This document shows positions 2,929 to 63,592 of a stretch of DNA of 64,000 nucleotides, piece by piece (positions within the stretch are counted from its first letter, which is position 1; the number at the start of each line of letters is the position of its first letter). The stretch covers positions 133,052,001-133,116,000 of the forward strand of contig OZ024740.1 in NCBI GenBank assembly GCA_964016885.1, given 5' to 3'. Both the position numbers and the translations under genes were made by a program. Source of the DNA: Eledone cirrhosa (Eukaryota). The notes under the pieces were generated by a model. It ran no database searches and was not told where the DNA came from. It saw only the letters and a list, made by a program, of their open reading frames with translations.

Positions 2929-3389
<461 letters not shown>

Positions 3390-6316: not shown

Positions 6317-6345
6317 TCATTATTATTATTATTATTGTTATTACT

Positions 6346-8597: not shown

Positions 8598-8623
<26 letters not shown>

Positions 8624-8625
<2 letters not shown>

Positions 8626-8876: not shown

Positions 8877-8911
<35 letters not shown>
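8624..8911 (+). mobile_element. Tx1 subfamily B, 3'UTR-only copy with (ATT)n tail
   Basis: Nearly identical to 22288-22560; bounded by (TTA)n on both sides. Confidence 0.9.
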
Positions 8912-8912
<1 letters not shown>

Positions 8913-9043: not shown

Positions 9044-11005
9044 ATGGAAATTTTCGACCTTGAAACGGTAAACAACGTTCAGGTCAAAAGTGTAAAGGCA
9101 GCCACTGGAGATTTCACCACGACAACGACGGCTACGGTCATGCCTGTCATCCACTCTACTGAATGTGAAGGCAAAACTCAAAAGCTACCATCACAACCTT
9201 CTGTGATAGCAGCAGTATCATCTGAAAACGACATCACCACCACCGCCACCACCACAATAACAACAACTCAGAGCAATAACGACAATAACACCGACAGCTT
9301 CAATGTAAACACAGATGGCGGTGGCAACAACATCAACAAACAAAACAACAACAACAACACCAATAACAACAGCAAGAATGACAACACCAACAATATGAGC
9401 ATCAGAAACACCACATTTGCTGCAGCAACAGCAAAAACAAAGCGCTTATTGAAAATTGATATTGATATTAGCGATAAAGACGAACAGTTGGCCCAAGCGT
9501 GGAGGCTAATTAAACGGGAGAAGTCCTGGGCAAACCTGACTATCCCGGACGAGGCAATAGCGGCCATGCAAAGGAAGACGGTGTTCTTTCGATGCATTTC
9601 GGTGCAGACACGAAAAGTGGAACTTGCCAGCCAAGCAGAGATCGAGGCTGCTTTGGAGTGCATCGGTAGTAACATAGAGTATAAGGCAAGAGGCAAACAG
9701 TTCGGTACCATCTCGGTACTGTTAAAAACCGAGGCCCTCGCTATTAAGCACTCGGTGACCCAATGCAGAACGGAACCCATTATCATGCACCCGTCTACAT
9801 GGGTAAAATGATAGTAAAGGTCCGCATTCCCAGCATCCCACCAGGAATGAACATATGGTGGTTGCTGGTATGCGTAATAGAGGAGGGGACAGACACTACC
9901 CACCTGGACATCAAAAGGACAGAGAGAGAGGACTGGTCCGGAATGGATTTGGAGATTCTTCTCCAAATGAAACCGGAGGACATGAACAACATCCCGGATT
10001 TTGCCCGCCTGCAGGACGGGACAACAATCCAACTAATCATTGACTGAAGAAGGCCACGCTGGTTCGTCTGCGGGGAAGCAACGCATCTGCGAGCCTTCTG
10101 CCTTCAGCGCAAAAATGCAGGGGGTTGCAAACCTCCTTTGTTGCCAACGCCAGTGTAAGCACGGAAAGCTGCACTACCACCACCACCAAAAACAACACCA
10201 ACAAAAACACGAACACCAACATCAAAAACAGCCGGATCACCACCAAGACCAAAACCAATCCAAGGAGAAAACGAGCCCCCCCCCCCCAATTAATACACAT
10301 AGACAAAACAATAAACGAACACACAGACACAGAGACACTCACAGCCACAAACCCTTTGTCTTCCAGCAGCGAAGATGAAGGAAAACCGAAAAGTGCCAAA
10401 AAACAGAGAAAACTCACTAAAAAAAGCCCCAACAAAACACAAAAACATACATAGCAGAAAATACAGACACCACTAACGCAAACACTTCCCCAATAACATC
10501 ATCACCAACAGCAACATCGACACCACCTCCACAATCCCCGAAACGCAAACAACCTAAACAAACACAAGTACAAATAAACACACAAATACCTGAAAATGCA
10601 GAAACCACACCTACAACAAAACACAGACATACCCGAAACAACACCACCAAAACCATCACCACCGCAGCCACCAAAACGAAAACAAATAAAACCGCAGCAA
10701 CAAAATGTTAAACACTTCGTGCTTGTCAGAAGGGCCAACGATAAACTGATGGCCCTCTTAGCACGAAGCAAGGACATTCAAACAGTGGGGAAGATTTTTG
10801 AAATGAGCACATTTTGCGTGCCAGAAGATTTGCTTCTGGTCCGAATGTCACTCAATTCCTTCAAAGAGATTTGAGAAAGCTTTCCTCAAGACGTGTAAAC
10901 CCCGAATGTGAAACCCATATCAAGACTTTTAAAGGGGTTCTCAAAAGAAACCCCAACAACCATGGAGGTCGAACCGCCCGACATTCACAAGACGCCGAGA
11001 GGTAA
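9044..11005 (+). pseudogene. Tx1 ORF1 (gag-like), frameshifted
   Basis: T/N-rich N-terminus, RGKQFGTISV core homologous to the other ORF1s, degenerate zinc knuckle (WFVCGEATHLRAFC), P/T-rich tail, stop at 11003-11005. Confidence 0.8.
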
Positions 11006-11038
11006 GTAAACCTTCCCTCTCTCTCTGAGCTTACCAAT

Positions 11039-14692: not shown

Positions 14693-14898
14693 GGTCTAAG
14701 CGGACGTATTTTGCTCGCTCACAGTAAGTCGCTTTCTTTGCCTGTTAAAATTATTTGTTGTTAAATATTTCTTGTTGTGTAAGTGATATAAGCCCTTAGA
14801 CTTTGCCCCGTGAAGAGGAAAGTATAATATTTGGGCCTTTTGGCCCAAATATTTGAACTTTTTTTACGTTAAAACATTTACGAAGAAAAAAAAATATG
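14693..14898 (+). mobile_element. Isolated Tx1-type 5'UTR ending at the presumptive ORF1 ATG
   Basis: Follows (ATT)n; hairpin aatatttgggcc-tttt-ggcccaaatatt like other Tx1 5'UTRs; ends aaaaaaaaatATG as at 17081. Confidence 0.6.
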
Positions 14899-16853: not shown

Positions 16854-17080
16854 TTATTATTATTATTATTATTATTATTATTGGCGTCTTACGTAGGAAA
16901 TCGTATCATCGTGAGCTCCGCCAAGGTTTGTAGTTTTCCTTTGTTTAAAATTGGCATTTATGGAAAATTATTATTGTTAACTGTATCTAAGTGCACATAC
17001 ATTGTTTTCCTAAAAGCACACTCAAAATTATTGGGGCCTTGAGACCAAAATTTAAACTTTTATAATTATCAAACAAAAAT

Positions 17081-18997
17081 ATGTCTTTGAAAAATCATGG
17101 ACGACTCACAGCCAGACCTTCCTCACAAACTAACACCTCACACCGATACCACCATTGTAAATATTACTACGTTTGCCAACACTAAAAATATAAGCAGTAG
17201 CAATAATTTAAATTTGTCTCATGCAGACATTCATTTCCCGCCATTACAATGACTGCAGGTGTTGAAGCCGCCACCCTCACCACCACCACAGCGACAAAAG
17301 AAACAAAAGAAAAAAAATTATCTCGTGACATCGAAATGGATTCACCCAAAATGGACTCTTCCACACCGAACACCACTGACGCCACCACCACAACTGAAAC
17401 TAAAAATAACAATAACAAAAATAACGATAACAACAACAGCAACAACAACGATGAGAATAAGAAAACCACCCTGTCTTTTGCCAGAGTAGCAAAAAAGTGC
17501 GAAGCAATCCAGGTAACTCAGGAGGAATTAGATGAAGCCAAGAGAATGGTTAAGAAAGATGGGTACAGGGTCAGGCTCATCTCCCCACCTAATAAAGTGG
17601 AGCATCGGCGCCTATGCACCGTATCTTATCGGACGATTAACATATAATGGCGCCGAGTGGAACGAGCATCCGAGTCCCAAATCAAAAATTCTTTGGGACA
17701 TGTGTGGGCAAAAAAAACCCACATCGGACGTGGGCAGAAATATGGAACCTTGGATGTGTTCTTTAGAACACCACAGGAGGCCAGAGAACACTCCATGGTC
17801 CCATTAAGAAGTGACGACTTCACACGCGTCCCAAGCTATTGTGGCCAGAGTCTCGTGAATATCAGGATGAACCACGTTCCACCGGCCATCGAAATACCCT
17901 GGCTAATGGCTGCCGTCCTCGCCGACATCGAGGCCAACACCAAGATAATCGAAATAGCGAACAAAAAGCAGGAGAACTGGTCCGGATCTGGGATGGAGCT
18001 CCTGATCCAAGCGGACCAAAAAAGCATTGAGGAGATCCCAGAGGTAATAGACCTCACTCACGGCAGCCACCTCACCTTAATCATCGAGGGCAGAAGGCCT
18101 AGGTGTGTCGTTTGTGGTGAAGGAACCCACCCAGGGGCTTTCTGCCCTCACGCTAAAAAGTTGATTCTCCCTCTCATACCCACCCCAGTGACTCAACCAT
18201 CAGCACAACCATCAGCAGAAATAGCAGCAACAACTGTAGCAGCAACAACAGAAGCAACAACCCCAGAAATAGTAGCAAAACCAACACCACCACCACCCAG
18301 CACGCCATAACTAGCACAAGCGCCTACTCCATCCACCATGCCATAACCAAAACCAACGCTTGTGGAGGATTTTCCACGCCCTGACCTATCGCAACTGGAG
18401 ACAGATTGTGACGACGAGGAATGGGAAACAGTATCAGGAAAGAAGCCAAAAAAGAAACAATTCTCTTCCGTCCCCCTCCAAAAACAAAATACAGAGCTAA
18501 ACAAATAAACTATCAAACAAAAAAGTTGGGACAGCTATGCCACCATCCACAGCAGCATCACCAATCCCATCACCACAAACACCAACACCATCACCATCAT
18601 TAACGCCAACACCACCATCACCAATACCACGAAAGTCACCAAAAAGCGAAACAGAAACAAACCCACAACAAACGCAAACAAAACAAAACAAGCCAAACGA
18701 TACACACTACACAGCATTAAATTCGAACAACAACCAATAATTACACTACATCCAACACAACACCAGCATCACAGAAAAAGACTACAAAACAACCCAAAAG
18801 TTCACACCACCTCCACACATACAAATCACTCGCATCACACAAAAAACGTGCACGACACTAAAACAAAAATTCCCCAAAGACATCGAAGACTTCCGACAAG
18901 CACTCTCCAGGAGGATTTATAAGGACATCCTTCTGGAGGAGGCCACAAGCAGTGAAAAGGATGGAGAAACCACCTTCCTCTACGAGAAGTAAGGTAA
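17081..18997 (+). pseudogene. Tx1 ORF1 with CX2CX4HX4C zinc knuckle, interrupted
   Basis: LSFARVAKK, RGQKYGTLDVFF, EGRRPRCVVCGEGTHPGAFC; stops and frameshifts. Confidence 0.8.
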
Positions 18998-19029
18998 GTG
19001 GTCTTTCCCATCTTTTCCACTCCTTTTCA

Positions 19030-22000
19030 TAGATGTAGTGGCCATCAGCGAGACCAGAATCTCCGAAGCACGGGCCTTCGCACCGATCTTCAGCGGCTAC
19101 CATGTGTACGTATCTCCCAGTCGTCCCGGATGGGGGGGAGTAGTTGCTGTGCTTTTTCGGAGAGGTTTGGATCTCGCCATACGGGCCATCTTCCAGGACC
19201 CAGAAGGTAATTTGGTGTTGCTGGAGACGGACAAGCTTTCAGGCTAGTGGCCGTCTATGCCCCAACAGGTGCAGGGCGGTCTGATTTCTTCCGGCATCTG
19301 GAGACCTTTCTTGAAACGTCCAGCTCTTTCGTGTTAGTGGGCGACTTGAACGGGATCTTAGATGCATGCTGGGACTGTGTGGGGTTAGCGGATATGGGAG
19401 GAGGGTGCAAGAGCCTCACCAACCTGCTCAGGCATTTTCACCTGTCTGACAGGTACCGATTGGATTTCCCGAATGTGCCAATGTGGACTTGGACAAATCG
19501 CATGGGGTCATCCAGATCATATCTAGATAGAGTATATTGTAGGGAAATAGATAGGTCTAGCATAGGCTGTCCACAATTCAAGATAGTCAGCTACACGGAC
19601 CACAAATTCGTGATCTGTGTGCTTGACTTAGATAGGCTTCATAGACGAGGATCCGGCTACTGGAAGCTAAACGCGTCCTTACCAGCGCGCAACGTATACA
19701 GAGACCGGATTAGCGAACTAGTTAAGCGGGCGTTGACGGGGGCCATCGTCAACAACAAGTGGTGGTTTGCTCTGAAAAGAGCAATTAGAATAGAGTCCAT
19801 TAGGTTTAGTAAGGCTTTAGCAATAGAGAAAAATAGAGCAGAGGGAGAATTAGTTAGAAAGTTAGACGAGGCGCTTAGCAAAGGTATCGGGCCCGACGTA
19901 CTTGCGGCGAAATTGGCCCTTTACCAGTTCTTCAATGAAAAGCACGAAGGCTGCGTTGTCAGAGCTAGGGTACGTGCTCTCAGACACGAGGGGACGAAAG
20001 CCGTTCAATGGGCCCGAGTGGCGGAGGCGCGTCGTGGCAACAAAACCACGATCCGGTCTTTGGTGGACCACGACGGGCGCCTGCTACTCGATCCCGCGCA
20101 AATGTGTGAAGCTTTTCAGCGACACTTCGCTCAACTGTTCGGGGGCAGTGGCGGGCCGGTTCGAGGGATGGACTTTAGTGTCTACCTCGACGGACTGCCG
20201 CGGCTTTCGGCCACTGAGGCGGAGTGTTGCGAAAAGTCGATAACAACCGCTGAAGTACGGGAGGCAATGACTGGCTGCACAAGGGGTAAATCGCCCTGTT
20301 TGGATGGTCTGCCCTATGAACTTTACGTACAAATATCAGACTTGTTCGGAGGCCTCTTGGCAGACGTCTACTGCAACTGGCAACAGAAGGGGAGAATTCC
20401 CAGCTCTGTGAGCCGAGGAGCGGTGGCACTGCTGAGAAAGGATCCGAAAAAGGGGGATAACATAGATAATTTTAGGCCCATAACTCTGGTAAACACAGAG
20501 TTCAAGATTTTGGCCAAGGTGCTAGCAAAGAGGTTGACGCTTGTCGTTGGTGGTCTGGTGGGAGAGGCACAGACATGCGCCATTCCCGACATATCCATCC
20601 ACGACAACCTCCACCTCATGCGATACATCGTAGAGAGGGTAGCTAGGGAACCTGGCACAGGAGGGTCTTTGATCAATTTAGATCAGTCGAAAGCCTTCGA
20701 TAGGGTCGACCATCGTTACCTAGCGGCAGTGCTGAGGGCGGCTGGCTTTGGGCCCGTCTTCAGAGGCTGGATCGCTGCCATGCACAGCGACATCTGCTCT
20801 GTAGTGAGAGTGAACGGTCACCTTTCGGAACCGTTCAACATCATGCGCTCGGTCCTCTCGTCCTTATTGTACATATTGACTCTCGAGCCATCACTGCACA
20901 AACTGGAGACGTTGAGGGTGGTACCGCGCGAACTAGGATGCGGAAGATCCGTGTCATAATATGCGGACGATGTCACCGTAGTGGTGTCGAACGCCAAACA
21001 CATCGAGGCGATCGGCACTACACTAAGAGAATACGAAGCGGTGACAGGAGCAATGATCAACAGGAAAAGTCAGTGGGCCTGCAGCTCGGCACCTGGAGAG
21101 GCAGTCCATGCCGTCCAACGGCGTCGTCGGGCGCTGGACGGACGGACCGGTTAAATTGCTAGGGGTCTGGTTCGGTCCAGACCTCCAGACGGGCAAAAAC
21201 TGGGACGAGGTGACGAGCAGAGTGGCTTCTCTCACCCTGAAAGGTCGAGCGGAGGTGGCTAACGCGTACATAGCGTCCGTCATCTACTACCGCCTGACCG
21301 TCGTACCTTGTCCTAAGCCCCGCCTGACTGCGCTGGAGCGTTTGCTCTTTCGCTTCTTGTGGAAGGGACGCGCTCCGATGGTCAGGCGGTCCATCTGCTT
21401 TCAACACCCGCTACGTGGAGGGCTGGGCATGCCGTGGCTGATGATGTGCAGACAGTGGCGCTCAGGCTACGACATCTCCACCTCTTCCTCGACGGTGATC
21501 AGGTGTGGTCGCCGTTTGCTAGACAAGTTTTTCCCAAGCTCGTCTCCTTGACAGAGCTGCAGTCCTGGGTCAAGCGAAGAGCGAGAGGGAGCGCTTGGAG
21601 ACTGGAATGTCTTCAGGCGCTCACAGCCCTCGACCAATCGGGCAATGTGATCGGTGGAAACTCCACCTTGGCGTTCTATAGGGGATCAGTGGAGGGGAAG
21701 AGCGACGACGTACTTGGAGAAACTCTAGGCGTCGACGAAAATCAACTAGCCAATCTCTTCGGAAGGACTTTCGGGCCGGGGCCTATGGACAACTTCCAGA
21801 AATCCCTGGCCTGGCAGTGCTACCGGGGAGCTTTGCCAGTTCGGGATAAACTCTACAGGCATGGAGGTGCCGTCAGCCGGGCATGTCCGAGATGCGCACA
21901 GGGCGACGAAACCATCCTGCACGCACTTGTCCAGTGTCCGAGCATTGCTGACTTGTGGGTTTATGTCGAACACCTGCTGTCACCTGTAGGACGGATCCAG

Positions 22001-22299
22001 CTATCAGCTGAGTCCATTGTGAGGATTGCCCCGCCCTCTTCCTTTAGCCGGGAAGGGCAGGCAGTTTTTATCTGTCTGGTGGCCATGGCGAAAAGATAGT
22101 ATGGTGGACACGTTTGAAAGGGCTGAAGACGAGCACTTACCTCTTCGGTGATGCCCTGATTAACTTTTTCAAATTTCATTTGAAAAGGAATATCAGGGTA
22201 GAGAGGGAAGTGCTCTCTTCCCAGCATTTTGTTGAAAGATGGGTGAGAGAAGCAAGTATGGCCCGAATGAATGGGCCTTCTCTGAGTATGTGTCTGTAA
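19030..22299 (+). pseudogene. Tx1 ORF2 (APE-RT), start deleted, frameshifted
   Basis: SETR, GDLN, SYLDR, TDHK, YWKLN, LDQSKAFDRV, *YADD, CPRC..ETILHALVQC; ~105 nt including the ATG missing relative to 60064-60168. Confidence 0.9.
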
Positions 22300-22542
22300 A
22301 TTAAAGGGGGAAAACTGGGAGAGGGCACTTGTCCTGGTGGTCAGGGTCACTGTGGTCTTTTAATGGGCTTTCTCCACAAATGTCCCTCGGAAGTCTCCCC
22401 CCTATTTGGGAATTTTTCTTTGTTATTTTATTTCATCCTCTGTTTTTTTTACACGCAGAAATGCCCATTTGTACCGTCCTGTATTGTCCTGTACTGTCCT
22501 TAATGTCTACTTTATGTAAACCCTTGTTGTTAATAAAGAAAA

Positions 22543-22594
<52 letters not shown>

Positions 22595-29646: not shown

Positions 29647-30167
29647 TATCAACTAGAAATAGATTGACATATATATATATATATATATAAAATAAACATA
29701 TGAAACAATCACAGGGAATAGTTTGTAAAGAATGTAATCACACATAGCTAGGTAGGTAACTAATTAAAGTTTAACTAGAACTTCAAATATAGATACCTTT
29801 TAAAATGATTAATCCCCTTTGTATATATTTATTTAAGTAATAAATATATTTCACCTATTAATACGTAAATCACAGCAGTTAAATTATTGGATGTTCACCA
29901 CATGGTTATCTTCTTCTCCTTTGGTGAACATCCAATAATTTAACTGCTGTGATTTACGGATTAATAGGTGAAATATATTTCTTACTTAAAGAAATATATT
30001 CAGAGGAGATTAATCATTTTAAAAGGTATCTATATTTGAAGTTCTAGTTAAACTTTAATTAGTTACATACCTAGCTATGTGTGCTTAAATTCTTTACAAA
30101 TTATTCCCTGTGATTGTTTCATATGTTTATTTTATACATATATATGACAATCTATTTCTAGTTGATA
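29647..30167. repeat. ~520 bp palindrome of two inverted Penelope pLTR-like arms
   Basis: atcaactagaaatagattg...ttggatgttcacca / tggtgaacatccaa...caatctatttctagttgat; spacer 29901-29921; a third arm copy lies at 44183-44552. Confidence 0.88.
29916..30008 (+). ncRNA. Type I hammerhead ribozyme, G3-C8 variant core
   Basis: CUCCUUUG-GUGAACA-[UCC..GGU]-GAAA-UAUAUUUCUU-ACUUA-AAGAAAUAUA-UU-CAGAGGAG; 8-bp stem I, 10-bp stem III. Confidence 0.7.
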
Positions 30168-33748: not shown

Positions 33749-33895
33749 TTGAGCTCTATCGTCGGGGTCATAATTTTTCCTATATATAGTAATAATAAAT
33801 TAGAAGACTAAAATCCAAAGAGGGTTCGATAAGGATAAATATATATCAAATATATAAGAACCGTAGAGCAAATATTTATTAAAATAACAGATTAA

Positions 33896-33946
33896 AGTTT
33901 AACCAAAGAATCGCTGCTTTCACCCTTAACGGGATCTTCTGAAACT
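33896..33946 (-). ncRNA. Hammerhead-like motif in the inverted pLTR (CAGAAGA core)
   Basis: AGUUU-CAGAAGA-UCCC-GUUAA-GGGU-GAAA-GCAG..UUGG-UU-AAACU; stem III mismatch. Confidence 0.45.
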
Positions 33947-34383
33947 AACAAAGTCAATCTGTGAACGCAGAAGTGAATATTTCAAAAAACGTTGCAACCG
34001 GAGGAAGACAGGAAGATGATACTTTGGTTCGTGGAAACGTTCCCTGGCAAAGAACTGGAAAAAACGAATATAATACGTCATTATTAGGAGCGGTAAAAAA
34101 CAATTACACGCAAAGACAGAATCACGTTTATGGTATAAAAGAAGTCGTAGACTAAAATTCTAACTAGGAAACCGAATGATTCTCGGCTTCAGACTTAAGA
34201 AAAAAGTAAATAAAATACAGAGTAATTGTTTTTCACCGCTCCTAATAATGACCTATTATATTCGTTTTTTCCCGTTCTTTGCCAGGGAACGTTTCCACGA
34301 ACCAAAGTATTTTCTTCCTGTCTTCCTCCGGTTGCAACGTTTTTTGAAATATTCACTTCTGCGCTCACAGATTGATTTTTGTT

Positions 34384-34434
34384 AGTTTCAGAAGATCCCG
34401 TTAAGTGTGAAAGCAGCGATTCTTTGCTTAAACT
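34384..34434 (+). ncRNA. Hammerhead-like motif in the 5' direct pLTR (CAGAAGA core)
   Basis: AGUUU-CAGAAGA-UCCC-GUUAA-GUGU-GAAA-GCAG-CGAUUCU-UUGC-UU-AAACU; stem II mismatch. Confidence 0.5.
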
Positions 34435-34560
34435 TTAATCTGTTATTTTAATAAATATTTGCTCTACGGTTCTTATATATTTGATATATATTTATACTTA
34501 TCGAGCCCTCTTTGGATTTTAGTCTTCTAATTTATTATTATGACTATTTAGCTCCCTCGG

Positions 34561-46062: not shown

Positions 46063-49000
46063 GAACAACAACCACACCACCACCAGCATCACCCAAAACA
46101 CCAAAAACGCAAATACAACAAAACACACACACCCAACAGCAACAACAAGAAAACAGCAACAAAATCACCTCTCCCCCCAAAAGTACACATAAACATGGCA
46201 AATAAAGAACTCTTACAAAATATAAAGCAGCACATAGACATCACAGAAAATAATTACTACACCCCACCAACCCCAAGAACGCTCCCGACAAACATCATTG
46301 AAATCAAATAGAACATTACAAATTTTTAAAACAAAAATTCCCTAACGCAGTTGGAGACTTAACAGGGCCGGTTATCAAGAAGTTATACACCGACATCCTC
46401 TTGGAAACACCCATGACCAGCCAAAGGGACGGTTCTACTGTCGCTTCACCACACGATCAAGGTCAGTGATCCTTTCTCACTTACCCTGTTTCTCATCCAA
46501 TATGGACGTACTTAAAATAGGTAGTATAAATGTACGTGGCCGGGGGGTCGTTTGGAAGCAGGGTCACCTGATCAACGACCTCAGGTCACTAAACATAGAT
46601 GTGGTGGCCATCAGTGAGACCAGAATCTCTGAAGCCTTCGCAACGATCTTCAATGGCTACGATGTATACGCATCACCCAGCCCTCCAGGATCGGGGGGAG
46701 GGGTTGCCGGGCCTTTTCGGTGGTGCTGGACGTCACCGGCAGCAAAAGCAATGATATCAGGCTAGTAGCCGTCTACGCCCCGACAGGGGCAGGACGGCCA
46801 GACGTCTAGAGACTTTTCTTGTAACGTCCCGCTCTTTAGTGTTAGTGGGCGACTGGAACGATATCTTAGATACACGCTGGGATTATGTGGGGCTAGTAGA
46901 CAGGACAGGAAGGTGTAAAAGCCCCAACAACCTGCTGAGACGTTTTGAACTGTCTGACAGCTATAGACTGGATTATCCGAATGTGCCAATGTGGACATGG
47001 ACAAACCCCACCGGGTCATCCAGATCGTATTTAGATAGGGTATTCTCTGTAGGGAAACAGATAAGGCTAGTGTAGGTTATCCATAATTTAAAATAGTCGA
47101 CTACACGGAACACAAATTTGTGATCTTTGAAGTTGACTTAGATAGACTCCATAGGCAAGGGCCTGGCTACTGGAAGCTTAACGCGTCGTTCCCGGCGCGC
47201 AAAGCTTGAGAGACCGGATTAGCGTATTAGTTAAGCCAGCGTTGTCGGGTGCGATCGTCAACAACAGGTACTGGTTTACCCTGAAAAGGGCTATTAGAGT
47301 AGAATCGATAAGGTTTAGCAAAGGAGGTGTGATAGAAGAAAATAGAGTAGAGGGAGAGTTAGTTAGAAAGCTAGAAGAGGCGTTTAGGACAGGCATCGCA
47401 AACGACGTGCTTGCGGCGAGATTGGCACTCGAACGATTCTTCAAAGCAAAGCATGAAGGCTACATTGTCAGAGCTAGAACGCGTGCTCTAAGACACGAGG
47501 GGACGAAAGCCGTTCAATGGGCCCGGGTGTTGGAGGCGCGACGTGGCAACAGGTCCAAAATTCGGTCTTTGCCTGATGAAAACGGGCGCATGTTGCTCGA
47601 ACCTGAGCAGATGTGTGCGGCTTTTCAACAGCACTTTCCTCAATTGTTCGGGAGCGGCGGCGCGCCGAATCGGAGTATGGACTTCGGTGCATACCTCGAC
47701 GGACTGCCGCGGCTCTCGATGACCGCAGCGCAGTGCTATGAAAAGCAGATAACAGCAGGTGAAATACGGGACGCGATGTCTGACTGCATGAGGGGTTTAT
47801 CGCCAGGCTTGGATGGCCTGCCCTACGAGCTTTATGCGTATATGCCAGACTTTTTCGGCGACCTCTTTGCAGATGTCTACTGCAACTGACAGTAGAACGG
47901 GAGCATTCCCAGTTTTGTGAGCCGGGGAGCGGTGGCGCTGCTGAGAAAAGACCCGAACAAGGGGGACGTTATAGACAACTTCAGGCCCATAACTCTGCTA
48001 AACGCAGAGTTTAAGATTTTGGCCAAGATGTTAGCAAAGAGATTGGCGCTTGTCGTCGGTGATCTGGTGGGAGAGGCGCAAACATGCGTCATCCCGGACA
48101 GATGCATCCACGACAACCTCCATCTCATGTGATACATCATAGAGAGGGTGATTAAGGAACCTGGCACGGGTAGGGCCCTGCTCAACTTGGATCAATCTAA
48201 AGCATTTGATAGGGTCGGCCATCGGTATTTGGCTGCGGTTGTCGAGGCGACCGGCTTCGGGTCCGTTTTTATGGGCTGGATCGCTGCGATGCACAGCGAC
48301 ATCTGCTCGATTGTGAGGGTGAATGGTCACCTGTCGCAGCAATTCAGCATCATGCGCTCGGTCCACCAGGGTTGACACCTTTCGTCCCTCTTTTACGTAC
48401 TGGCCCTATAGACACAAATTGGAGACGCGAACTGGGATGCGAGAGATCCGTGTCAGTTTACGCCAACGACGTCACCGTGGTGGTGTCGAGCACCAAACAC
48501 GTCCAGATCCTCGGCACCGCTCACAAAGAATACGAAGCGGTGACAAGACAAAGGTAAACCAGGAAAATTCTGTGGGCTTGCAACTCGGCACCTGGAGAGG
48601 CAAGCCCATGTCATCCGACAGCGTCGTGGGGCGCTAATGGACGGACCGGTTAAATTGCTCGGTGTCTGGTTCGGTCCAGACCTCCAGAGGGAGAACAAAT
48701 ATAGCGAGGTGACGAGCAGAGTGGCCTCTCTGACCCAGAAATGGGCCGAGAGGAAGCTGTCCATGAACGGCCGGGCGGGGTCGTGAATGCGTACATAGCG
48801 TCCGTCATCTGCTACCGCCTAACCGTCGTACCTTGCCCGGCCCAACTCTGACCAAAATGGAGCGCCTTCTCTTCCGCTTTTTGTGGAAGGGACGTGCTCC
48901 CATGGTCAGATGATCCATTTGCTGTCAACACGCGTTGCGTGGAGGACTTGGCATGCCGTGGCTGATGATGCGCAAACATGCGCTGAGGCTGTGATCTCTG

Positions 49001-50139
49001 GTGCCTCCTTAACGGTGAACAGGTGTGGTCGCCGTTTGCCAGACGCGCTTTTCCCCAGCTCGTCTCTTTGACGGAGCTGCAGTCCTGGATAAGGAAAAGA
49101 CCGAGGGATAGCGCTTGGAAGCTGGAATGTCTCCAAGCGCTCACCTCCCTCTACTGGCTGGGCACTATGATCGGTGGAACATCCACCTCGGCGTTCTATA
49201 GAGATCTAGTGGAGGGAAAGAGCGACGACGTTCTCGGGGAGACCCTGGGCGTCTAAGACGATCAGCTGTTCGCTCTCTCCAAGAGAACTTTGAGACCGGT
49301 GACTATGGACAACCTCCAGATATGCCTGGCCTGGCAGTGCTACCGGAAAGCGTTGCCGGTTCGGGATATGATCTACAGGCACAGAGATACTGGCAGCCGA
49401 GCCCGTCCGAGAAGCGCTCAGGGCGACGAAACCGGCCTGCACGCACTCGTTCAGTTCCTAACGATTGATGACTTGTGGAGCTATGTATAACAGTTGCTGT
49501 GCGTGTAGGACGGATACGGTTATCGACTGAGTCCATTGTGCAGATAGCCCCGCCATCGTCCTTTGAAGAGGAGGAAGGGAAGGCAGTTTTCATCTGCCTG
49601 GTGGCCATGGCGAAAGAGATTGTGTGGTGGACAAGGTTGAAAGGGTTAAAGACAGATACTTTCCTCTCCGGCGAATCCCTGATTAACTTTTTCAAGTTTC
49701 ACTTGAAGAGGAAAATCAGGATGGAGACGCAAGTGCCGTCTTCTAGCAACTGTTTTGAAAGGTGCGTGAATATAGCGAGAATGATACGAGTGAACGGGTC
49801 CGCTCTGAATATACGCTTGTAGTTTGAGAAATTGGAACAAATTGAGAGAGGGCGCTTGCTCTAGTGGGCAGGGTGGCCGTGGTCTTTTGTGTGGTTTTCG
49901 CCACGAGTAACCCTCGGAGGTTTCCCACCTATTGGGGATTTTTTTATTGTTTGAATTTTCAGTTTTATTGTTTATATATATATATGTTTCTATGTCTTTT
50001 TTTCTTTTCTTATATTAATAATAAAATCTTTACACGCACAAAACCCACATCGTACCGACCTGTGCCGTCTGTAATGTTTTTCTTTGTGTCAGTCCTTGTG
50101 GCCAATAAAGAAATCATTATTATTATTATTATTATTATT
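46063..50139 (+). mobile_element. Tx1/L1-group LINE copy C, 5'-truncated, decayed
   Basis: ORF1 tail to 46469, ORF2 46502-49822 (GSINVRG, SETR, GDWN, SPGLDGLPYELY, LDQSKAFDRV, YAND), distinct 3'UTR, (ATT)n at 50116-50139. Confidence 0.9.
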
Positions 50140-50142
50140 GTT

Positions 50143-52812
50143 CTTTGAGTCTCAGACATTGATGTTATTCAACTTGAAAGTTTGTTGAAATGAATATCAA
50201 GGCACTACCTGCAGCCTCAGATATTTAGGACGTATCGGAGGGTTCTTGCTGACTAATTTTCTTGACCAATTTTCTTTAACCATGCTTGGAAACCCTTTGA
50301 GATAGTACCTAGTGCGCCTATGACAATCGGGACCACTTTGACTTCATGGCAGTTCCAAATCCTTTTTACATCCCACTTAAGTCCTGGTATCGGTTAATTT
50401 TCTCCCTCTCCCTCTCTTGCACTCTCGTGTCGAATGGGTAGGTTACATCCACAATCAGGCACGAACTTTTTTCCTTGTGCAAAACCACCAGGTCAGGTCT
50501 ATTTTGTTCCAGTTTCTCGTCTGTCTGTATCCTAAAATCCCACAGCACCTTCACCTGATCGTTTTCTATCACCGACTCTGGCTTATGCTTATACCACTTC
50601 TCAGAATGTGGTAAATTGTTTACTTTGCATAGGTGCCAGTGGATCACCCTTCCCATCACAACATGTCTCCAGCCTTTATAGTGAGTCTGGGCTAGGTGTT
50701 TACACTCGGATACAATGTGAGCCAATGTCTTCTCTCAATGTTTCAGCCACTTCGTTTTGAGAGCCTGCTCTTGCCCATCCATTAGCATTCCTTCTGTAGC
50801 TTTTTTAAGGTCTCCTCTTTTCAATCAGTTCGATGTCTGTGGATCTCTAAATTCAGCTTTCTCAAAGAGGTACTATGAAGGAATTTTTCATGAAAGTTGC
50901 TCTTTCTCCTTGTTGTAATTTCCTCTTTGGACATCCACTGGTCTATTGTCCTCTCCTTCAGTACAATTCTGATCATAGGCTCCCTACTATCAGTCACGTA
51001 TTTGTGTAGGTTGTTTTTGTCCATCTGAACACAGTCCTCTATGCTGATAAGACCTCTTCCACCTTCAGATCTCCTTAAGTAGAGTATATCGACATCACTC
51101 CTCTTGTGGAACATGTTGTAGATAGTCAATAGCTTCCTAGTCTTCCTATCCATTTCTTTTTGTTCAGCACCATTCCATCTAAGAATTCCCGCATTGTACC
51201 TAATAATAGACACAGCTTGGGAATTCACTGCACTTATGACATTCCTACTATTCAGATGTGATTTTAATACGCTCCTAATGTACTCAGATCTTATCAATTC
51301 CTTCATGTTTTTGTTCTTGATGTCATCAGCCTCCAGAACACCCAAATAATTGTATCCTTCTTCAGTGTCAATTTCCTTTATCATCTCACCTGTTTGTACC
51401 TGGATTCCGTTACTTCTACAGAAGGACTCCACACTTCATCAGAAGGACTCCACACTTACTAATATTAAATTGCATACATATATCATTGCTGAAAATACGG
51501 ACAGTGTCAACTAGCACATCCAACTTTTTCTCACTCTTCCCAAAGAGTTTAAGATCATCCATGAAGAGGAGGTGAGATGATGGTAAGCTCTCCCTTTCCC
51601 AACTTGTATCCTGCTCTCACCTTAGCAGTATAATCGTCAGGGGTATAAGGACAAACAACAGAGGGGACCAACTATCTCCCTGGAAGATACCTCTCTTGAT
51701 CTTCACGCTTCCCGAGGATTCTCCAGCTGAAGTTAACTCTGTTTTCCAGGACTTCATACTTTTGCTCAACAACTGTCTGATGTTATCTGCCACCTTGGTT
51801 ATCCAAGAATATGGTATCATGTCGAATGCCATTTTGTAGTCTATCCATCCCATGGCAAGACCAGTGTGTCTCCTCTTGCAATTCCTCATTATCATCTTAT
51901 CAATAAGTAACTGGTCCTTTGTACCACAGGACTTCTTTCGGCATCCTTTCTGTTCGTCCGGTAACAAGTTGTTTATGTGGAGGTGATGGTAGATTTCTTC
52001 AGACACAATGCTTGTTAACAGTTTCCACATTACGGACAGACATGTGATATGTCTATAGTTGGTAACATCATTACCCTTGATTCGGTCTGTCATTACCAGA
52101 ACTGTGGTACATCTTGTCAACCAATCTGGTACCTCACTTGACATCAAGCAGTCATTGAACATGGTTGTCAGTTTCGGGTGGAGGGATGTTATATTTTTTA
52201 ATCCAATACCCCTGCACACCACCTGGGCCTGGTGATTTCCAGTTGGTTAGTTTTTTGGTCTGCCCTTTAAGAGTTTCAACTGTGATACTCAAATCAGTTT
52301 GTTGGTGTTATTCTTCACTAATCTCCTTTTGTACTGTCTCACTCCACACTGCTTGATCATTATGTTCAACATCCTGCTCCCGTATTCCTCTCCAGAATGT
52401 CTTAGACTGTTTCACCTCAGGGATCAAGTGGCTGACTCTTTGTTTCCCTTTAAGCTGCCCAAACAACATCTTCTGGTTGTTTTCAAACAAGCGGGTTTGT
52501 CTATACTTACTGACTCTGCCCTTTTATTGCCTAGTCTTTTCACTCTTTGCTACAATGCGTTGCTTCAGTTCCTCTATAATAATATTTAGCTTTTTCCTCC
52601 TAGTTTTCTACTTTACTTTCAGTCTATTTATAGTGTCTATGTATTTTAGTGTCACATTCAGTAGGGACTCAAGCTTTCCAATCTGATTTCTCATTTCCCT
52701 GAATTGACAATTTAGTCGTTTCTTCCACCAAAAGTCTAATCTTTCTTGTTTGTTGTTTCCTATCGTTTTTATGCCAAGTAATTTCCTCACCGCATTTGCT
52801 GTTACTTTGAGG
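50143..52812 (-). mobile_element. R4/Dong LINE, 5'-truncated, with internal deletions
   Basis: Same 3' terminus and RT/RLE motifs as 6346-8597; bounded by (ATT)n. Confidence 0.9.
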
Positions 52813-52833
52813 ATTATTATTAATATTATTATT

Positions 52834-55800
52834 CTTTGAGTCTCAGTCATTGATGTTAGTTAACTGTAAAGTTTGTCGAAATGAATATCAAGCCACTACC
52901 TGCAGCCTAAGATATTCAGGACGTATAGGAGCGTTCTTGCCGTTCCCAGCAAGCATGCCTTTTGAAGAGTTCCAAAAAGCGTGAAGGGGCCAAATTTCTT
53001 TAACCATCCCTGGAGACTTTTTGAGATAGTACCTAGTGCGCCTATGACAATCGGGACCACTTTGACTTCATTGCAGTTCCAAATCCTTTTTACCTCCCAC
53101 TTTAAGTCCTGGTATCGGTTAATTTTGTCCCTCTCCTTCTCTTGCACTCTCGTGTCGAATGGGCAGGCCACATCCACAATCAGACACGCTCTTTTTTCTT
53201 TGTCCACAACCACCAGGTCAGGTCTATTGTGTTCCAGTTTCTTTTCGGTCTGTATCCTAAAATCCCACAGCACCTTCACCTGATCGTTCTCCATCACCGC
53301 CTCTGGCCTATGCTCATACCATTTCTCAGAATGTTGTAAATTGTTTACTTTGCATAGGTGCCAGTGGATCACCCTGCCCATCACATCATGTCTCCAGCCC
53401 TTATAATGAGTCTGGGCTAGGTGTTTACACTCGGATACAATGTGAGCCACAGTCTCCTCTCTCTCTCCACAGATCCTGCACAGTGGGCTAGCCTCCTCCT
53501 TGTAAATATGGTGTTTCAACCCCTTCGTTTTGAGGGCCTGCTCTTGCGCAGCCATTAACATTCCTTCTGTAGCCTTTTTAAGGTGTCCTCTTTTCAACCA
53601 GTTCCATGTCTGTGGATCTCTGAATTCAGTTTTCTCAAAGAAGGTACTATGAAGGGATTTTTCCTGAAGGCTGCTCTTTCTCCTTGATGTTATTTCCTCC
53701 TTGGACATCCACTGGTCTATTGTCCTCTCCTTCGGTACAGTTCTGAGCATTGGCTCCTTACTGTAAGTCATGTATTTGTGTAGGTTGTTTTTCTCCATCT
53801 GAACAAAGTCCTCTATGCTGATAAGATCTCTTCCACCTTCAGATCTCCTTAAGTAGAGTCTATCGACATCAATCCTCTTGTGGAACATGTTGTAGATAGT
53901 CAATAGCTTCCTAGTCTTCCTATCCATTTCTTTTTGTTCAGCAACATTTCATCTCAGAATTCCCGCACTGTACCTAATAATATACACAGCTCGGGAATTT
54001 ACTGCACTTATGGCATTCCTACTGTTCAGATGTGACTTTAATACGCTCCCTACTCTCCGAATATATTTAGTTCTTATCAATTCCTTCATGTTTTTGTTCT
54101 TGATGTCATCAACCTCCTGAACACCCAAATACTTGTATCCTTCTTTAGTGTCAATTTCCTTTATCATCTCACCTGTTGGTACATGGATTCCGTTACTTCT
54201 ACTCAATTTAAACCTCTTCATCACAAGGACTCCACACTTACTAATACTAAATTGCATACATATATCATTGCTGAAAATACGGACAGTGTCAACTAGCACA
54301 TCCAACTTTTTCTCACTCTTCCCAAAGAGTTTAAGATCATCCATGAAGAGGAGGTGAGATGATGTTATCTGCCACCTTGAGGATCTCCAGGCTTTTGGTG
54401 ATCCAAGAATGAGGCACCATGTCAAATGCCTTTTTGTAGTCTATCCATCCCATGGCAAGACCAGTGTGTCTCCTCTTGCAATTCCTCATTACCATCTTAT
54501 CAATAAGTAACTGATCCTTTGTACCACGGGACTTCTTTCGGCATCCTTTCTGTTTGTCCGGTAACAAGTTGTTTGTGTGGAGGTGATGGTAGATCTCCTC
54601 AGACATAATGCTTGTCAACAGTTTCCACATTACGGACAGACATGTGATAGGTCTATAGTTGGTAACATCATTACCCTTGATTCGGTCTTTCATTATCAGA
54701 ACTGTGGTACCTTTTGTCAACCACTCTGGTACCTCACCTGACATCAAGCAGTCATTGAACATGGTTGTCAGTTTCGGGTGGAGGGATGTTATATTTTTAA
54801 TCCAATACCCCTGCACACCATCTGGTCCTGGTGATTTCCAGTTGGTTAGTTTTTTTGGCCTGCCCCTTAAGAGTTTCAACTGTGATACTCAAACCAGTTT
54901 GTTGGTGTGCCTGTTCACTAACCTCTGTACTGTCTCAATCAACACTGCCTGGTCATTATATTTAACATCCTGCTCCCATATTCCTCTCCAGAATGTTTTA
55001 GTTTGTTCCGCCTCAGGGATCAAGTCGTTGACTCTTTCTTTCCCTTCAAGCTGCCGAAACAACATCTTCTGGTTGTTGTCAAACATGCGGTTCTGTCTAT
55101 ACTGACTGACTCTGTTCTCGTATCGCCTGATTTTTGCACTCTTTGCTACAATGCGGTTGCTTCAGTTCCTCTATGATAATATTTAGCTTTTTCCTCCTAG
55201 TTTTTTACTTTAATTCCAGTCTATTTTTAGTGTCTATGTTTTTTAGTGTCCCATTCAGTAGGGACTCAAGCTTTCCAATGTCATTTCTCATTTCCCTGAT
55301 TTGACCACTCAGTCGTTTTTTCAACCAAGGCTCTGATCTTTCTTGTTTGTTGTTTCTTCTGTCTTTAAACCAAGTAATTTCCTCACCGTATTTGCTGTTG
55401 CTTTGAGGATATTGTTGCACTGGTGAAGGCTCCTCGCCTCAAGGTATGGGATGACTTTGTTTACCTTAGCTGTTGTTTCTTTTAACTTTTTCCTGTCTAC
55501 AAATATTAGGTTCATAGGTTTCCCACTATCATTGTTCAATTCATCTACCACTAAGTTTAGGATATCAACCAAATCTTGTCTTAGCCCGTCAGCATTCATC
55601 TCATCAGTGGCCGTATCTCTGCTCCAGGTATTATTTATTTCAGCATTCAGATCATTGTCTGCTTCGGATGGTTCCTCCGTTCTCTCGACCTCTTCACCTT
55701 CATTTCCCACTGGCTCGTTTGCCTGGCATACTCCACTCTCCATGTCCAACCTAATCTCTCAGCTCAGTTCCTTCAGTTCCAGCTCGCTTATCCACCCATT

Positions 55801-57760: not shown

Positions 57761-60700
57761 GAATGCTATGGTTGACGGAGGCTCGGCTGTGTAAGGTATT
57801 GTAAATTTTGACCGCTATAACAATTGTAAATTGTTTAAAACTTTAACCAAATTGTAGACTAAAACACCCTCCTCCTCGTGAGAGGGGTCTTTCTGCCCGT
57901 TTTTTTGCCCTTCGGGTTTAAATAACCTCTTATTGGGGTTTTGTGCCCAATATTTATTTTAAACCCCAAAAAAACCATGGCTACGAAAAAGAATTTTCAC
58001 AAGTCACTCCCACTCATTCCGTTTTCTTCTTCCTCAATCGTCACTACAGCAGAGAGAAGATTGTCTCTCTCCCTCCCTTCTCTTTCGCAAGCGACGCCAG
58101 TAAAGAAAAATGACGTGCAAAGCGTGCAACATTTCTCCACGACGATGACGACAGCGACGAAAAAGGTGTGTGGGAAATACGAAAACCCATTTCATTCGTC
58201 TGACGTCATGAATAATAGCAGTAGCAGCCGTAATAACAGCAGCAGCAGCAAGAGTGACAAGGAAAACAACAGTAGCAGCCGCAACAGCATCACCAGCAGC
58301 ATAAGCAACAACAGCATTAGCAGCAACAGCAACAACAGCAGCAGCAGCTACAACAACAACAACCACAGCAACAGCGGCGGCGGCAGTAGTCGTAGTACCT
58401 GCAGCAACAACAAAAGTAACAGCAGCTCTGACGACAACAACAACAACAACAACAGCAGCAAATAAAAAACCAATCTCGTTTGCAGGTATCGCAAAGAACC
58501 TGGAAACCATCCTCATAACAAATGAGGAATTATAGGAAGCGAAGAAGATGGTGACGAAAACCGGACACAGAGCAATCTGCAAGGCAGCCGAACAAATTTT
58601 CGAAATCCAACAGCACTCTACGGTAACTTACCGAACAGTAAGCACAAAATCCCGTAGGGTTGAAAGATCCAAAGAGGCTAAAATACAAACAGCCTTAGGG
58701 TCTGTGTGGCAGCGGAAAACGGATATCACTCAAGGCAAGAAATATGCCACCGTAAACGTGCTTTTTGCAACACCCCAGGAGGCAAAGGCTCAATCCTTAG
58801 TGACCCTAAGGAGCGAGGAAATGGTGTTGGTGCCCTCCTACTGCGGGCAAAAAATTGTGAGGGTCAAACTGACCCACGTCCCCCCCCCACGGGATGGCCC
58901 CTTCTTGGCTGGCCGAGTCTGTCCTCGTTGGAATCGAGGACAAAACAACTGTACTGCAAGTACAGAAAATAGTAAGAGAAGATTGGGTCGGCACCTCCAT
59001 TCAGATGTTAATCCAAACCAACCAGGAGTGCATCGAAGCTATCCCGGATGTGAAAGACTTCGATAACGACACTCAACTGCCCATAAGGGTTGAGGGCAAA
59101 CGCCCGAAATGCTTTCGCTGTGGATCGAAGACTCACCTCAGAGCCTTCTGCAACGAGAAGACCCTGAGAAAGGAGAAAATCCCGCTCCTTCCGAAACCGG
59201 CTCCACGGCTACCAGCAACAGGACAAGCTGCAACCAGGAACGATACGTCCGTGGCACCCATACCTATGCCACGGAAATCAAGAACAGCACCAGCAGTGAA
59301 AGTATTAATAACAACAACAGCAATACCAACTGCAGCTGCAACAGAGACTCCACTGCAAACATCACCAACAACAACAAGTGAAAGAGTGGAGCTGGGACCC
59401 CTCCCCTACCTCACAGAATTGGACATGGAGTGTGAGGTGGGAGAGGGATGGCAAAAGGTCGCAAGAAGGCACAAACGCAGAAGCAGCGCAGAGACTCACA
59501 GCAGCAACACCACCAACATCATCACCACCCACACTAGCACCAGCATCACCACCGGCGACAACGCCACCATCAACAGCAACAACACCTTCAACACCAGCAC
59601 CACAAGCACCAACATCGCAAACACAACAACAAAACACACACACCCAGCAACAACGACAAGAAAATAACAGAACCACACCCCACCCCCAGAAACACAAATG
59701 CACGGCAATAAATACACACAACAAGAAACTAATGACTTACATAATTTAAGACACAGACATTTCACAGCACGACTACATAATACCAGCACCAATCAAAGTG
59801 CCAAAGTACATAAGACTGGTAAAAATTGCACAGAAAAAATACACAAACATTAAAATGAAATTCCCCAACGCAGTTGGTGATTTTAGAGACCTAGGAGGGA
59901 CTCTCAACCGGAGAGTATATTCGGACATACTCATAGAAGAGCCGACGACCAGCCGAAGGGACGATTCAACGGTCCCTCCACCAGACGATCAAGTGAAAAG
60001 GGATGGAGCAACCATCCTTCCTCTACAAAAAGTAAGGTAAGTGGTCTTTCCCATCTTTTCCACACCATTTTAAACATGACCTCACTCAGAATAGGCAGCA
60101 TAAATGCGCGTGGCTTGGGGTCGTCATGGAAGCAGGGTCACCTGCTCAATGACCTCAGGTCACTAAACATAGATGTAGTGGCCATCAGCGAGACCAGCAT
60201 CTCCGAAGCACGGGCTTTCGCACCGATTTTCGGCGGCTACGATGTGTACGCATCTCCCAGCCGTCCTGGTTCGGGGGAAGGGGTTGCTGTGCTTTTTCGG
60301 AGAGGTTTGGATCTCGCCATACGGGCCATCTTCCTGGACCCAGAGGGTAAGTTGGTGGGGCTGGACGTGACCAGCGGAGACCGGCAAGCTTTCAGGCTAG
60401 TGGCCGTCTATGCCCCGGCAGGAGCAGGGCGGCCTGATTTCTTCCGGCGTCTGGAGACCTTTCTTGGAACGTCCCGCTCTTTAGTGTTAGTGGGTGACTG
60501 GAAGGGGATCTTAGATGCACGCTGGGACTGTGTGGGATTAGTGGATAGAGGTGGAAGGTGCAAGAGCCTCACCAACCCTGCTCAGGCGTTTTGAACTGTC
60601 TCACAAGTACCGATTGGATTTCCCTAATGTGTCAAAGTGGACTTGGACAAATCGCATGGGGTCATCCAGATCATATCTAGATAGAGTATTTTGTAGGGAA

Positions 60701-63592
60701 ATAGATAGGTCTAGCATAGGCTGTCCACAATTCAACATAGTCAGCTACACGGACCACAAATTCGTGATTTGGGTGCTTGACTTAGATAGGCTTCATAGAC
60801 GATGACGCGGCTACTGGAAGCTAAACGCGTCCTTACCAGCGCACCAGGCCTACAGAACATTAGACGAGGCGCTTAGCAAAGGCATCGGCCGACGTGCTTG
60901 CGGTGAAATTGGCCCTTGACCAATTCTTCAATGCAAAGCATGAAAGCTGAGTTGTCAGAGCTAGGGTGCGTGCTCTCAGACACGAAGGGACGAAAGCCGT
61001 TCAATGGGCCCGAGTGGCGGAGGCGCGTCGTGGCAACAAAGCCACGATCCGGTCTTTGGTGGACCACGACGGGCGCATGCTACTCGATCCCGGGCAAATG
61101 TGTGAAGCTTTTCAGCGACACTTCGCTGGAGCTGTTCGCGGGCAGCGGTGGGCCGCGTCGAGGGATGGACTTTAGTGTCTATCTCGACGGAATGCCGCGG
61201 CTCTTGGCCACTGAGGAGGAGTGTTGCGAAAAGCTGATAACAGCCGCTGAAGTAGGGGAGGCAATGACTGGCTGCACAAGGGGTAAATCGCCTAGTTTGG
61301 ATGGTCTCCCCTATGAACTTTACGTACAGATGCCAGACTTGTTCAGAGGCTTCTTGGCGGACGTCTACTGCAACTGGCAACAGAACGGGAGAATTCCCAG
61401 CTCTGTGAGCCGAGGAGCGGTGGCACTGCTGAGAAAGGATCCGAACAAGGGGGATAACGTGATAATTTCAGGCCCATAACTCTGCTAAACACAGAGTTCA
61501 AGATTTTGGCCAAGGTGCTAGCAAAGAGGATGGCGCTTGTCGTTGGTGGTCAGGTGGGATAGGCCCAGACATGCGCCATTCTTGACAGATCCATCCACGA
61601 CAACCTTCACCTCATGCGATACATCGTAGAGAGGGTAGCTAGGGAACCTGGTACGGGTGGGTCCTTGATCAATTTAGATCAGTAGAAAGCTTTCGATAAG
61701 GTCGACCATATTTACCTAGCGGCAGTCCTGAGGGCGGCTGGTTTTGAGCCCGTCTTCAGAAGCTGGATCGCTGCCATGCACAGCGACATATACTCTGTGG
61801 TGAGAGTGAACGGTCACCTTTCGGAACCGTTCAACATCATGCGCTCGGTCCGCAAAGGATGTCCCCTCTCGTCCCTCTTGTGCGTATTGACTCTCGAGCC
61901 ATTACTGCACAAACTGCAGACGTTGAGGGGCGTCCCGCGCGAACTAGGATACGGAAGATCCGTGTCAGCATATGCGGACGATCTCACCGTAGTGGTGTCG
62001 AACGCCAAACACATCGAGGCGATCGGCACTACACTAAGAGAATACGAAGCGGTGACAGGAGCAATGATCAACCAGGAAAAGTCAGTGGGCCTGCAGCTCG
62101 GCACCTGGAGAGGCAGGTCCATGCCGTCCAACAGCGTCGTCGGACACTGGACGGACGGACCGGTTAAACTGCTAGGGGTCTGGTTCGGTCCGGACCTCCA
62201 GACGGACAAAAACTGGGACGAGGTAACGAGCAGGGTGGCTTCTCTCACCCAGAAATGGGCGGAGAGGAAGCTATCCCTGAAAGGTCGAGCGGAGGTGTCT
62301 AACGCGTACATCGCGTCTGTCATCTGCTACCGCCTGACTGTCGTACCTTGTCCTAAGCCCCGGCTGACTGCGCTGGAGCGTTTGCTCTTTCGCTTTTTGT
62401 GGAAGGCACGCGCTCCGATGGTCAGGCGGTCCATCTGCTGTCAAGACCCGCTACGTGGAGAGCTGGGCATGCCGTGGCTGATGATGTGCAGACACGCGCT
62501 CAGGCTACGATATCTCTACCTTTTCCTCGACGGTGATCAGGTGTGGTCGCCGTTTGCTAGACACGTGTTTCCCCAGCTCGTTTCCTTGACGGAGCTGCAG
62601 TCCTGGGTCAAGCGAAGACCGAGAGGGAGCGCCTGGAGACTCGAATATCTGCAGGCGCTCACAGCCCTCGACCAATCGGGCAATGTGATCGGCGTTCTAT
62701 AGAGGATTAGTGGAGGAGAAGAGCGACGACGTACTTGGGGAAAATCTAGGCGTCGACGAAAATAAACTAGCCAATCTCTTCGGAAGAACTTTCGAGCTGG
62801 GACCTATGGACAACTTCCAGAAACCTCTGGCCTGGCAGTGCTACCAAGGAGCCTTGCCAGTTCGGGATAAACTCTACAGGCATGGAGGTGCCGTCAGCCG
62901 GGCATGTCCGGGATGCGCGTAGGGCAACGAAACCGTCCTGCACGCACTCGTCCAGTGTCCGAAAATTGGTGACTTGTAGGTTTATGTCGAACACCTGCTG
63001 TCGCGCGTAGGATGGATCCGGCTATCACCTGAGTTCATCGTGAGGATTTCCCCGCCTTCTTCCTTTAGCCGGGAAGGGCAGGCAGTTTTTATCTGTCTGG
63101 TGGCCATGGCAAAAGAGATAGTATGGTTGACACGTTTGAAACGGCATAAGACGAGCACTTACCTCTTCGGTGATGCCCTGATTGACTTTTTCAAATTTCA
63201 TTTGAAAAGGAAAATCAGAGTAGAGAGGGAAGTGCTCTCTTCCCAGCATTTTGTTGAAAGATGGGTGAGAGAAGCAAGAATGGCCCGAGTGAATGGGCCT
63301 ACTCTGAGTACGTATATTTAAATTAAATGTGGAAAACTGGGAGAGGCCACTTGCCTTGGAGGCCAGGGTCACTGTGGCCTTTTACTGGGCTTTCTCCACA
63401 AATGTAGCTCCGAAGTCTCACCCCTATTGTGGAATTTTTCATTGTTATTTTTTGTTACATCCCCTGTTTCTGTTTTTACACGCAGAAATGTCCATTAGTA
63501 CCGTCCTGTATTGTCCTGCACTGTCCTTAATGTCTACTTTATATAAACCCTTGTGGTTAAAAAAGAAATCATTATTATTATTATTATTATTA
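57761..63592 (+). mobile_element. Tx1/L1-group LINE copy D, full length, chimeric (C-like ORF1 end, B-like ORF2 and 3'UTR)
   Basis: ORF1 57977-60040 with CFRCGSKTHLRAFC; ORF2 60076-63321 (GSINARGL, KGCPLS, YADD) very similar to copy B; (ATT)n at both ends. Confidence 0.92.

Follow-up and report, generated by a model that had tools for sequence, protein, structure and literature searches.

Results and discussion

A hybrid LINE family joined at a splice donor

Within the window (the whole stretch of DNA that we analyzed, 64,000 nucleotides long), the LINE that we call copy D belongs to a true hybrid of two other LINE families, E and B, whose parts meet exactly at the splice donor ending the ORF1 of E. 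Family D is real, recent and of single origin, and on balance we think it somewhat probable that it was made by splicing of a read-through transcript running from an E copy into a B copy, followed by retrotransposition. The features of copy D, and those of the other copies needed to read it, are as follows.

57761..59993, plus strand: E-derived 5' module of copy D, running from the 5' UTR (presumed promoter) to the point in ORF1 where the join lies; identity to the E majority is 92-95% in all bins, matches to B are short only, and the 5' end is that of E
57977, plus strand: ORF1 start of copy D; frameshifted in the window copy
59992..59995, plus strand: join AG/TG, where the end of the E exon at its donor meets the base that follows CAG in B, with 2-nt microhomology
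59994..60036, plus strand: B-derived ORF1 tail in D, 43 nt (42 in B); an extra G in the run 60000-60002 restores the B frame
60034..60042, plus strand: B-type consensus donor AAG/GTAAGT in D, holding the ORF1 stop TAA (60038-60040), 43 nt beyond the join
60043..60075, plus strand: pyrimidine-rich spacer ahead of the ORF2 start in D; a layout common to all sampled families
60076..63321, plus strand: B-derived ORF2 of D (endonuclease, reverse transcriptase, zf-RVT; domains from a B copy), broken in the window copy; 93-98% identical to the B majority
63322..63592, plus strand: 3' UTR and (ATT)n tail of D; acceptor-like TTTTTACACGCAG in B and D, absent from C and E
16883..22549, plus strand: copy B, belonging to the family that is the 3' parent (1,802 exact matches for that family)
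18947..18952, plus strand: tandem AAG CAG of B; the join uses the distal CAG
18991..18999, plus strand: B donor AAG/GTAAGT at the ORF1 stop
46459..46467, plus strand: C donor, GTCAGT by mutation in the window copy
10999..11007, plus strand: family A copy, donor GAG/GTAAGT at the ORF1 end; A is a distant family

All three junction sequences of the original prediction lie at the positions claimed: copy D reads ..GACGATCAAG (59993)/TGAAAAGGGATGG, copy B reads ..CACAAGCAG (18952)/TGAAAAGGATGG, and copy C reads ..GATCAAG/GTCAGT, with its GT at 46462-46463. The GTCAGT of copy C is present as described but is a point mutation, 27 of the 30 C copies having AAG/GTAAGT. In a scan of the 3.0-Gb genome, a 26-nt pattern across the D junction gave 2,233 exact matches, so that the junction is no one-off, and a pattern search for the B form gave 1,802. 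The upstream letters of D followed by GT returned 59 exact matches ending CAAG/GT; these define family E, which has no copy inside the window.

Majority lines were compared using 30 copies per family (the D, B and C sets being the best matches to the window copies), and over the 1.4 kb upstream of the join the identity of D is highest with E (97.4%), then with C (79.1%) and with B (71.7%), whereas downstream of the join D is 99.4% identical to B and 86.5% to E. E and B themselves diverge by 30% on the upstream side and by 13% on the downstream side. The 5' end of D is the 5' end of E, and the trees change partner in the same way, ORF1 grouping D with E and ORF2 grouping D with B (support 100/100). 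D is therefore a true hybrid, and the exchange of promoter and ORF1 that had been predicted is borne out. The 5' parent had been taken to be of C type; its ORF1 tail does end at the donor, but the parent is E, of which C is a sister family. From E came the promoter and ORF1, and from B the last 42 nt of ORF1, the spacer and ORF2. E reads AAG/GTAAGT precisely at the join position (CAAG/GTAAGT with the preceding letter), which places the join exactly on the ORF1 donor as claimed, and B has CAG before its join point; the join is out of register, so that D has the ORF1 tail twice.

The two tails are alike, and a double tail might on that account be ancestral, with B, C and E each having lost one half. 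This reading is refuted: E survives with its donor exactly at the join, D is close to E upstream and to B downstream although E and B differ as much as they do, the trees are incongruent, and early D copies lead back to both E and B states.

History of family D

A pattern search gave 173 matches carrying the early allele set, and among the 30 of these that were read, 28 hybrids have B-state letters downstream and two copies retain the donor. Early D copies can be ranked in steps, from those that are almost pure E and B up to present-day D. The basal copies share two alleles that are rare in E, namely -74T (10/10 basal copies, 3/50 in E) and -166G (9/10 and 2/51), and family D therefore had one origin; recurrent independent joins were rejected on the same ground.

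Three early copies (L130, L131 and L169) have mostly E alleles upstream and B alleles downstream, with no base added at the join. Downstream of the join, copy D of the window carries a G that B lacks, and five copies are without this extra G, three of them early (3 of approximately 165 early copies versus 2 of approximately 2,070 others, p = 0.004, the denominators being rough). This enrichment among early copies indicates that the first join was probably clean and out of frame. The founding join would leave the B tail out of frame (..DDQVKRMEKPSFLYEK and then a stop), a later gain of one G would have restored the B ending (..DDQVKRDGETILPLR), and the restored form likely took over. Measured against its class majority, late D has a median divergence of 1.9%, early D one of 3.0-3.4%, B one of 2.7% and E one of 3.7% (the D and B medians being biased low by the way in which copies were picked), and the 2,233 matches of D compare with 59 for E.

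Splicing and its alternatives as the origin of the join

In the origin that we favour for the D join, a transcript from an E copy would run on into a downstream B copy, and the donor at the end of the E ORF1 would be spliced to a cryptic CAG in the ORF1 tail of B, with removal of an intron of approximately 5.9 kb (trans-splicing being an alternative); the resulting two-ORF RNA would then be retrotransposed, presumably in cis, by the B ORF2. The substrate that this route requires is present in the genome, in that a same-strand B tail lies 5.3-8.3 kb downstream of E in 10 of the 59 E loci (12 tandems were flagged, of which we dropped a nested hit and a hit of 86% identity).

We evaluated the join against a null model of all possible E-B joins, weighted by the microhomology distribution of 72 distinct internal deletions of at least 25 nt in approximately 542 kb of element sequence (one of these, L192, came from a targeted search). 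Under this model a join of donor to AG has a probability of 0.26-6%, and a join of donor to YAG one of 0.05-0.42%, over five assumed windows. Among the deletions a microhomology of 2 nt is the mode (21/72), and none is of the GT..AG type (0/72). The join takes CAG with 2 nt of microhomology, although an AAG 3 nt upstream shares 4 nt and lies in the same frame. Acceptors are preferred in the order CAG, TAG, AAG, GAG (PMC2699507), and the choice of CAG over the AAG of longer microhomology suits spliceosomal preference better than it suits microhomology. A splice-made chimera is also indicated by the exact donor end without added bases in the three early copies; on the 3' side a CAG is present, with a poor tract.

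The likelihood strongly favours splicing at the exact join, but the weakness of the acceptor and the rarity of spliced retrocopies make the prior low (priors were estimated, not computed). Both caveats attached to the original prediction hold good: the region before CAG is 42% pyrimidine (11% T, with three AGs in the 30 nt upstream), and AG gives 2 nt of microhomology at the join. On the 5.9-kb path, 97 of the 178 YAG sites are richer in pyrimidines than the CAG that the join uses.

These same observations bear on an unlikely but serious alternative, that an ordinary event guided by microhomology happened to fall at the donor. Reverse transcriptase could have left B RNA for E RNA or skipped along a read-through RNA, or a deletion in the genome could have fused a tandem of E and B, and selection favouring joins close to the ORF1 end would have aided the product. 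The 2-nt overlap is of the commonest class, mosaics are frequent, L192 is a non-AG join at a donor, the acceptor is weak, and strand switching has been proposed for mosaic mouse L1 families (PMC3600994); such an event nevertheless demands the 0.05-0.42% coincidence calculated for donor and YAG together, and it would have bypassed two 4-nt microhomologies, at -3 and at -52.

An improbable variant has the spliceosome cut the E transcript at the donor, after which reverse transcriptase leaving its B template jumps onto the freed 3' end of the exon, so that the E part ends exactly at the donor while microhomology fixes the point in B. Reverse transcriptase is capable of end-to-end template jumping, and a jump of this kind accounts for the poor acceptor, for L192 (donor-exact, non-AG, with 3-nt microhomology) and for a mild excess of donor-exact joins; however, the 4-nt microhomology at -3 would be preferred, and freed 5' exons are normally retained in the spliceosome. 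Less credible still is a history in two steps, with a switch at the AGTGA common to E (..GTAAGTGA) and B (..GCAGTGA) and a subsequent loss of GTAAG by slippage that mimics a donor-exact join. Slippage has indeed removed GTAAG from two B copies and one F copy, but no intermediate copy was found (all four matches had a gap of 0), and the earliest D class already has the final join.

For splicing of a read-through transcript, exact-pattern searches, which miss many copies, yielded no intact E-then-B source locus with founder alleles. Three candidates were rejected: L291, which has the founder alleles but is 5'-truncated and mosaic, and L264 and L265, which are the closest relatives with an intact donor but have no B within 8.4 kb. 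A search of limited sensitivity for other 5' partners joined to B's CAG gave none, its one match being an early D. Degenerate patterns undercount (1,091 B/D donors, compared with 2,233 plus 1,802 from plain patterns), and every negative pattern search is therefore of limited reach.

The D join is a single event and not a recurrent route. Read-through, splicing and retrotransposition, as originally proposed, are favoured for this join but fall short of being shown (one founding event, a weak acceptor and no source locus found), whereas splicing as a general route for swapping modules is unsupported, other lineages being joined in register. The join is moderate fossil evidence for use of the donor.

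Other joins and hybrids

Joins at or near donors were searched for in B/D, C, A, F and E. Most were small indels, and there were two long donor-exact deletions, L192 and L301, against 0.24-0.5 expected (p = 0.02-0.09, with uncertain denominators). In L192 (a D copy, at G000:C3:4167274) the deletion begins at the donor and ends 435 nt further on at a non-AG site, with 3-nt microhomology. L301 (an A-family copy, at G000:C3:46207650) is a possible spliced retrocopy, in which precisely 52 nt of the GT..AG type are missing, beginning at the donor and taking in the ORF2 start codon. The lost stretch includes a pyrimidine tract, but it has 3-nt microhomology, and the deletion is within chance (p = 0.14-0.3). 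Retrocopies of donor-spliced RNA are rare at best.

As to whether other chimeras break at the same donor, the two other hybrid lineages examined are joined in register, one in ORF2 and one across the donor and spacer. In the first (L134, L135, L137 and L138), elements with a C ORF1 switch from C to E type 300-450 nt into ORF2; in the second (L224 and L241), an E ORF1 sits on the ORF2 of the first hybrid, the switch from E to C type running across the donor, which is retained, and the spacer. Mosaics of D with E and of D with B are also common. Because in-register mosaics are so common, recombination by means other than splicing is clearly active among these families.

The conserved donor at the ORF1 stop

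The motif AG/GTAAGT encloses the ORF1 stop in families A, B, C, E and F, in two reading phases, and the donor is intact in 28 of 30 copies chosen by an ORF2 motif alone; in late D the site reads CG/GTAAGT in 26/30. A consensus donor at this place was thus seen in each family of the group that was sampled. A pyrimidine tract follows the donor, and then CAACATG (the ORF2 start). The ORF2 of A and F is approximately 70% identical to that of B, C and E, and the ORF1 DNA of A and F is not alignable with theirs. Because the donor has been kept although ORF1 has diverged to this extent, its conservation, as read from the sequence, implies a function, which may be splicing or the binding of U1 alone. 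We found no report of a consensus donor conserved at the ORF1 stop of LINE families in the literature searched (listings and abstracts of mainly openly accessible work). Such a donor points to an unexplained step in the processing or protection of two-gene RNAs.

Two other readings of the site gained no support. A hairpin over the donor can be folded, but its pairing (86.7%) compares with 85.4% in shuffles and its covariation is not above that of shuffles (14 rows). An ORF1-only mRNA spliced to an acceptor in the 3' UTR is not a conserved design, in that the AG is present in B and D only and not in C, E or A, and no such retrocopy was found. In three runs resembling genomic DNA (approximately 1.4 Gb of contigs each), none of the 15 joints listed, with 444 more unlisted, starts at the donor, and we draw nothing from this about use of the donor.

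We propose only tentatively, with confidence a little short of even, the wider scheme in which the donor around the ORF1 stop is a working part of the life cycle that, in head-to-tail stacks within (TTA)n, splices the promoter and ORF1 of one family onto the ORF2 of the next. One such splice would have founded D, which is among the largest young families and far outnumbers its 5' parent; this would amount to recombination driven by the spliceosome.

Comparison with known systems

By what means LINEs acquire a new promoter and ORF1 has long been asked, and the usual answer is template switching or recombination. In humans, RAP1GDS1-L1PA2 is a chimera of spliced exon and LINE-1 that retrotransposed under a host promoter (PMC13174262). 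It has, as D would on the origin that we favour, a 5' part ending at a donor, a cryptic acceptor at or in the LINE, a history of retrotransposition and a new promoter; unlike D, it has a 5' part from a host gene and is known from four copies of two insertions, with a source locus and three RNA reads (PMC13174262). In D the 5' part is the promoter and ORF1 of another LINE, there are more than 2,200 copies, and the family is known here from genomic copies alone. The SpIREs of human L1 are likewise LINE copies with a join matching a donor and an AG, but in them the splice lies inside a single element, and they have been called evolutionary dead ends (PMC5860796); D joins two families, keeps both ORFs and has expanded to its 2,233 junction matches.

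The mosaic L1 families of mouse resemble D in uniting 5' and 3' parts that come from different families, and the mechanisms given for them in the available text are DNA recombination, heteroduplex formation and polymerase strand switching, splicing not being among these (PMC3600994); D differs from them in its out-of-register join, which duplicates the ORF1 tail. L1 ORF1 exons spliced to host genes, Lyosin for example, share with D an ORF1 exon and 5' splice site joined to a downstream exon, but they are old domesticated single loci, and the available text describes no donor conserved in active families (PMC12129022). In listings and abstracts of the mainly openly accessible literature that we searched, there was no report of a LINE-to-LINE splice founding a family. 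Splice-made LINE chimeras in humans are rare copies, and D would be one that founded an expanding family. If this is true, a spliced LINE need not be a dead end, and mobile elements have a little-noticed way to exchange a promoter and first gene; the parents, the early intermediates and the tandem substrates are all in one genome, which makes the splicing route directly testable.

Class of element

Several same-strand, two-ORF LINEs are located in (TTA)n runs in the window; they are of the L1/Tx1 type and putative members of the Tx1 subclade proper. The ORF2 of a B copy matches PF03372, PF00078 and PF13966 above cut-off (APE endonuclease, reverse transcriptase and C-terminal zinc-binding region), and its reverse transcriptase is nearer to that of L1 (human L1 ORF2p, E = 1e-25) than to that of R2 (E = 1e-8) among solved structures, in which other clades are sparse. 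The separate ORF1 has a CCHC knuckle (CxxCx4Hx4C in the B, C and D translations) and matched no Pfam family above cut-off. Copies are found in (TTA)n runs and tandem arrays, and target-site duplications are unreadable within the repeat. Argonauta hians is the sole species-named source among the ORF2 relatives found, which suggests a cephalopod host, a search for outside relatives of the ORF1 C-terminus gave 0/118 candidates, the metagenome scan (query P0005) gave no relatives, and sequence-atlas searches returned generic endonuclease and reverse transcriptase clusters only. L1-Tx1 families are among the recently active ones in an octopus (PMC13282606).

Several smaller observations concern the arrangement of these elements. 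Two A-family copies in separate places (L153 and L166) are 5'-truncated at the same base, approximately 40 nt before the donor, and possibly represent a short non-autonomous subfamily. Four near-identical D junctions approximately 32 kb apart (L016-L019, G000:C3:14630427-14728252) likely reflect segmental tandem duplication. Short insertions consisting of 3' UTR only follow the E 3' end in the same orientation at L181 and L182, and likewise at 8623-8912 of the window; these extra insertions are stacked 5'-truncated insertions in the ATT tail. The 3' UTR of B and D has a strong acceptor-like tract ending CAG (window 63470-63486 and 22440-22460), where C and E have CAC. The window also holds, on the minus strand, a second repeated family unrelated to the D query (6316-8608, 50113-55410 and 14897-15754, with a 755-aa open frame at 6428-8695), and three long inverted-repeat elements of 460-750 nt that are 88-91% self-complementary (2929-3389, 29647-30167 and 33790-34540).
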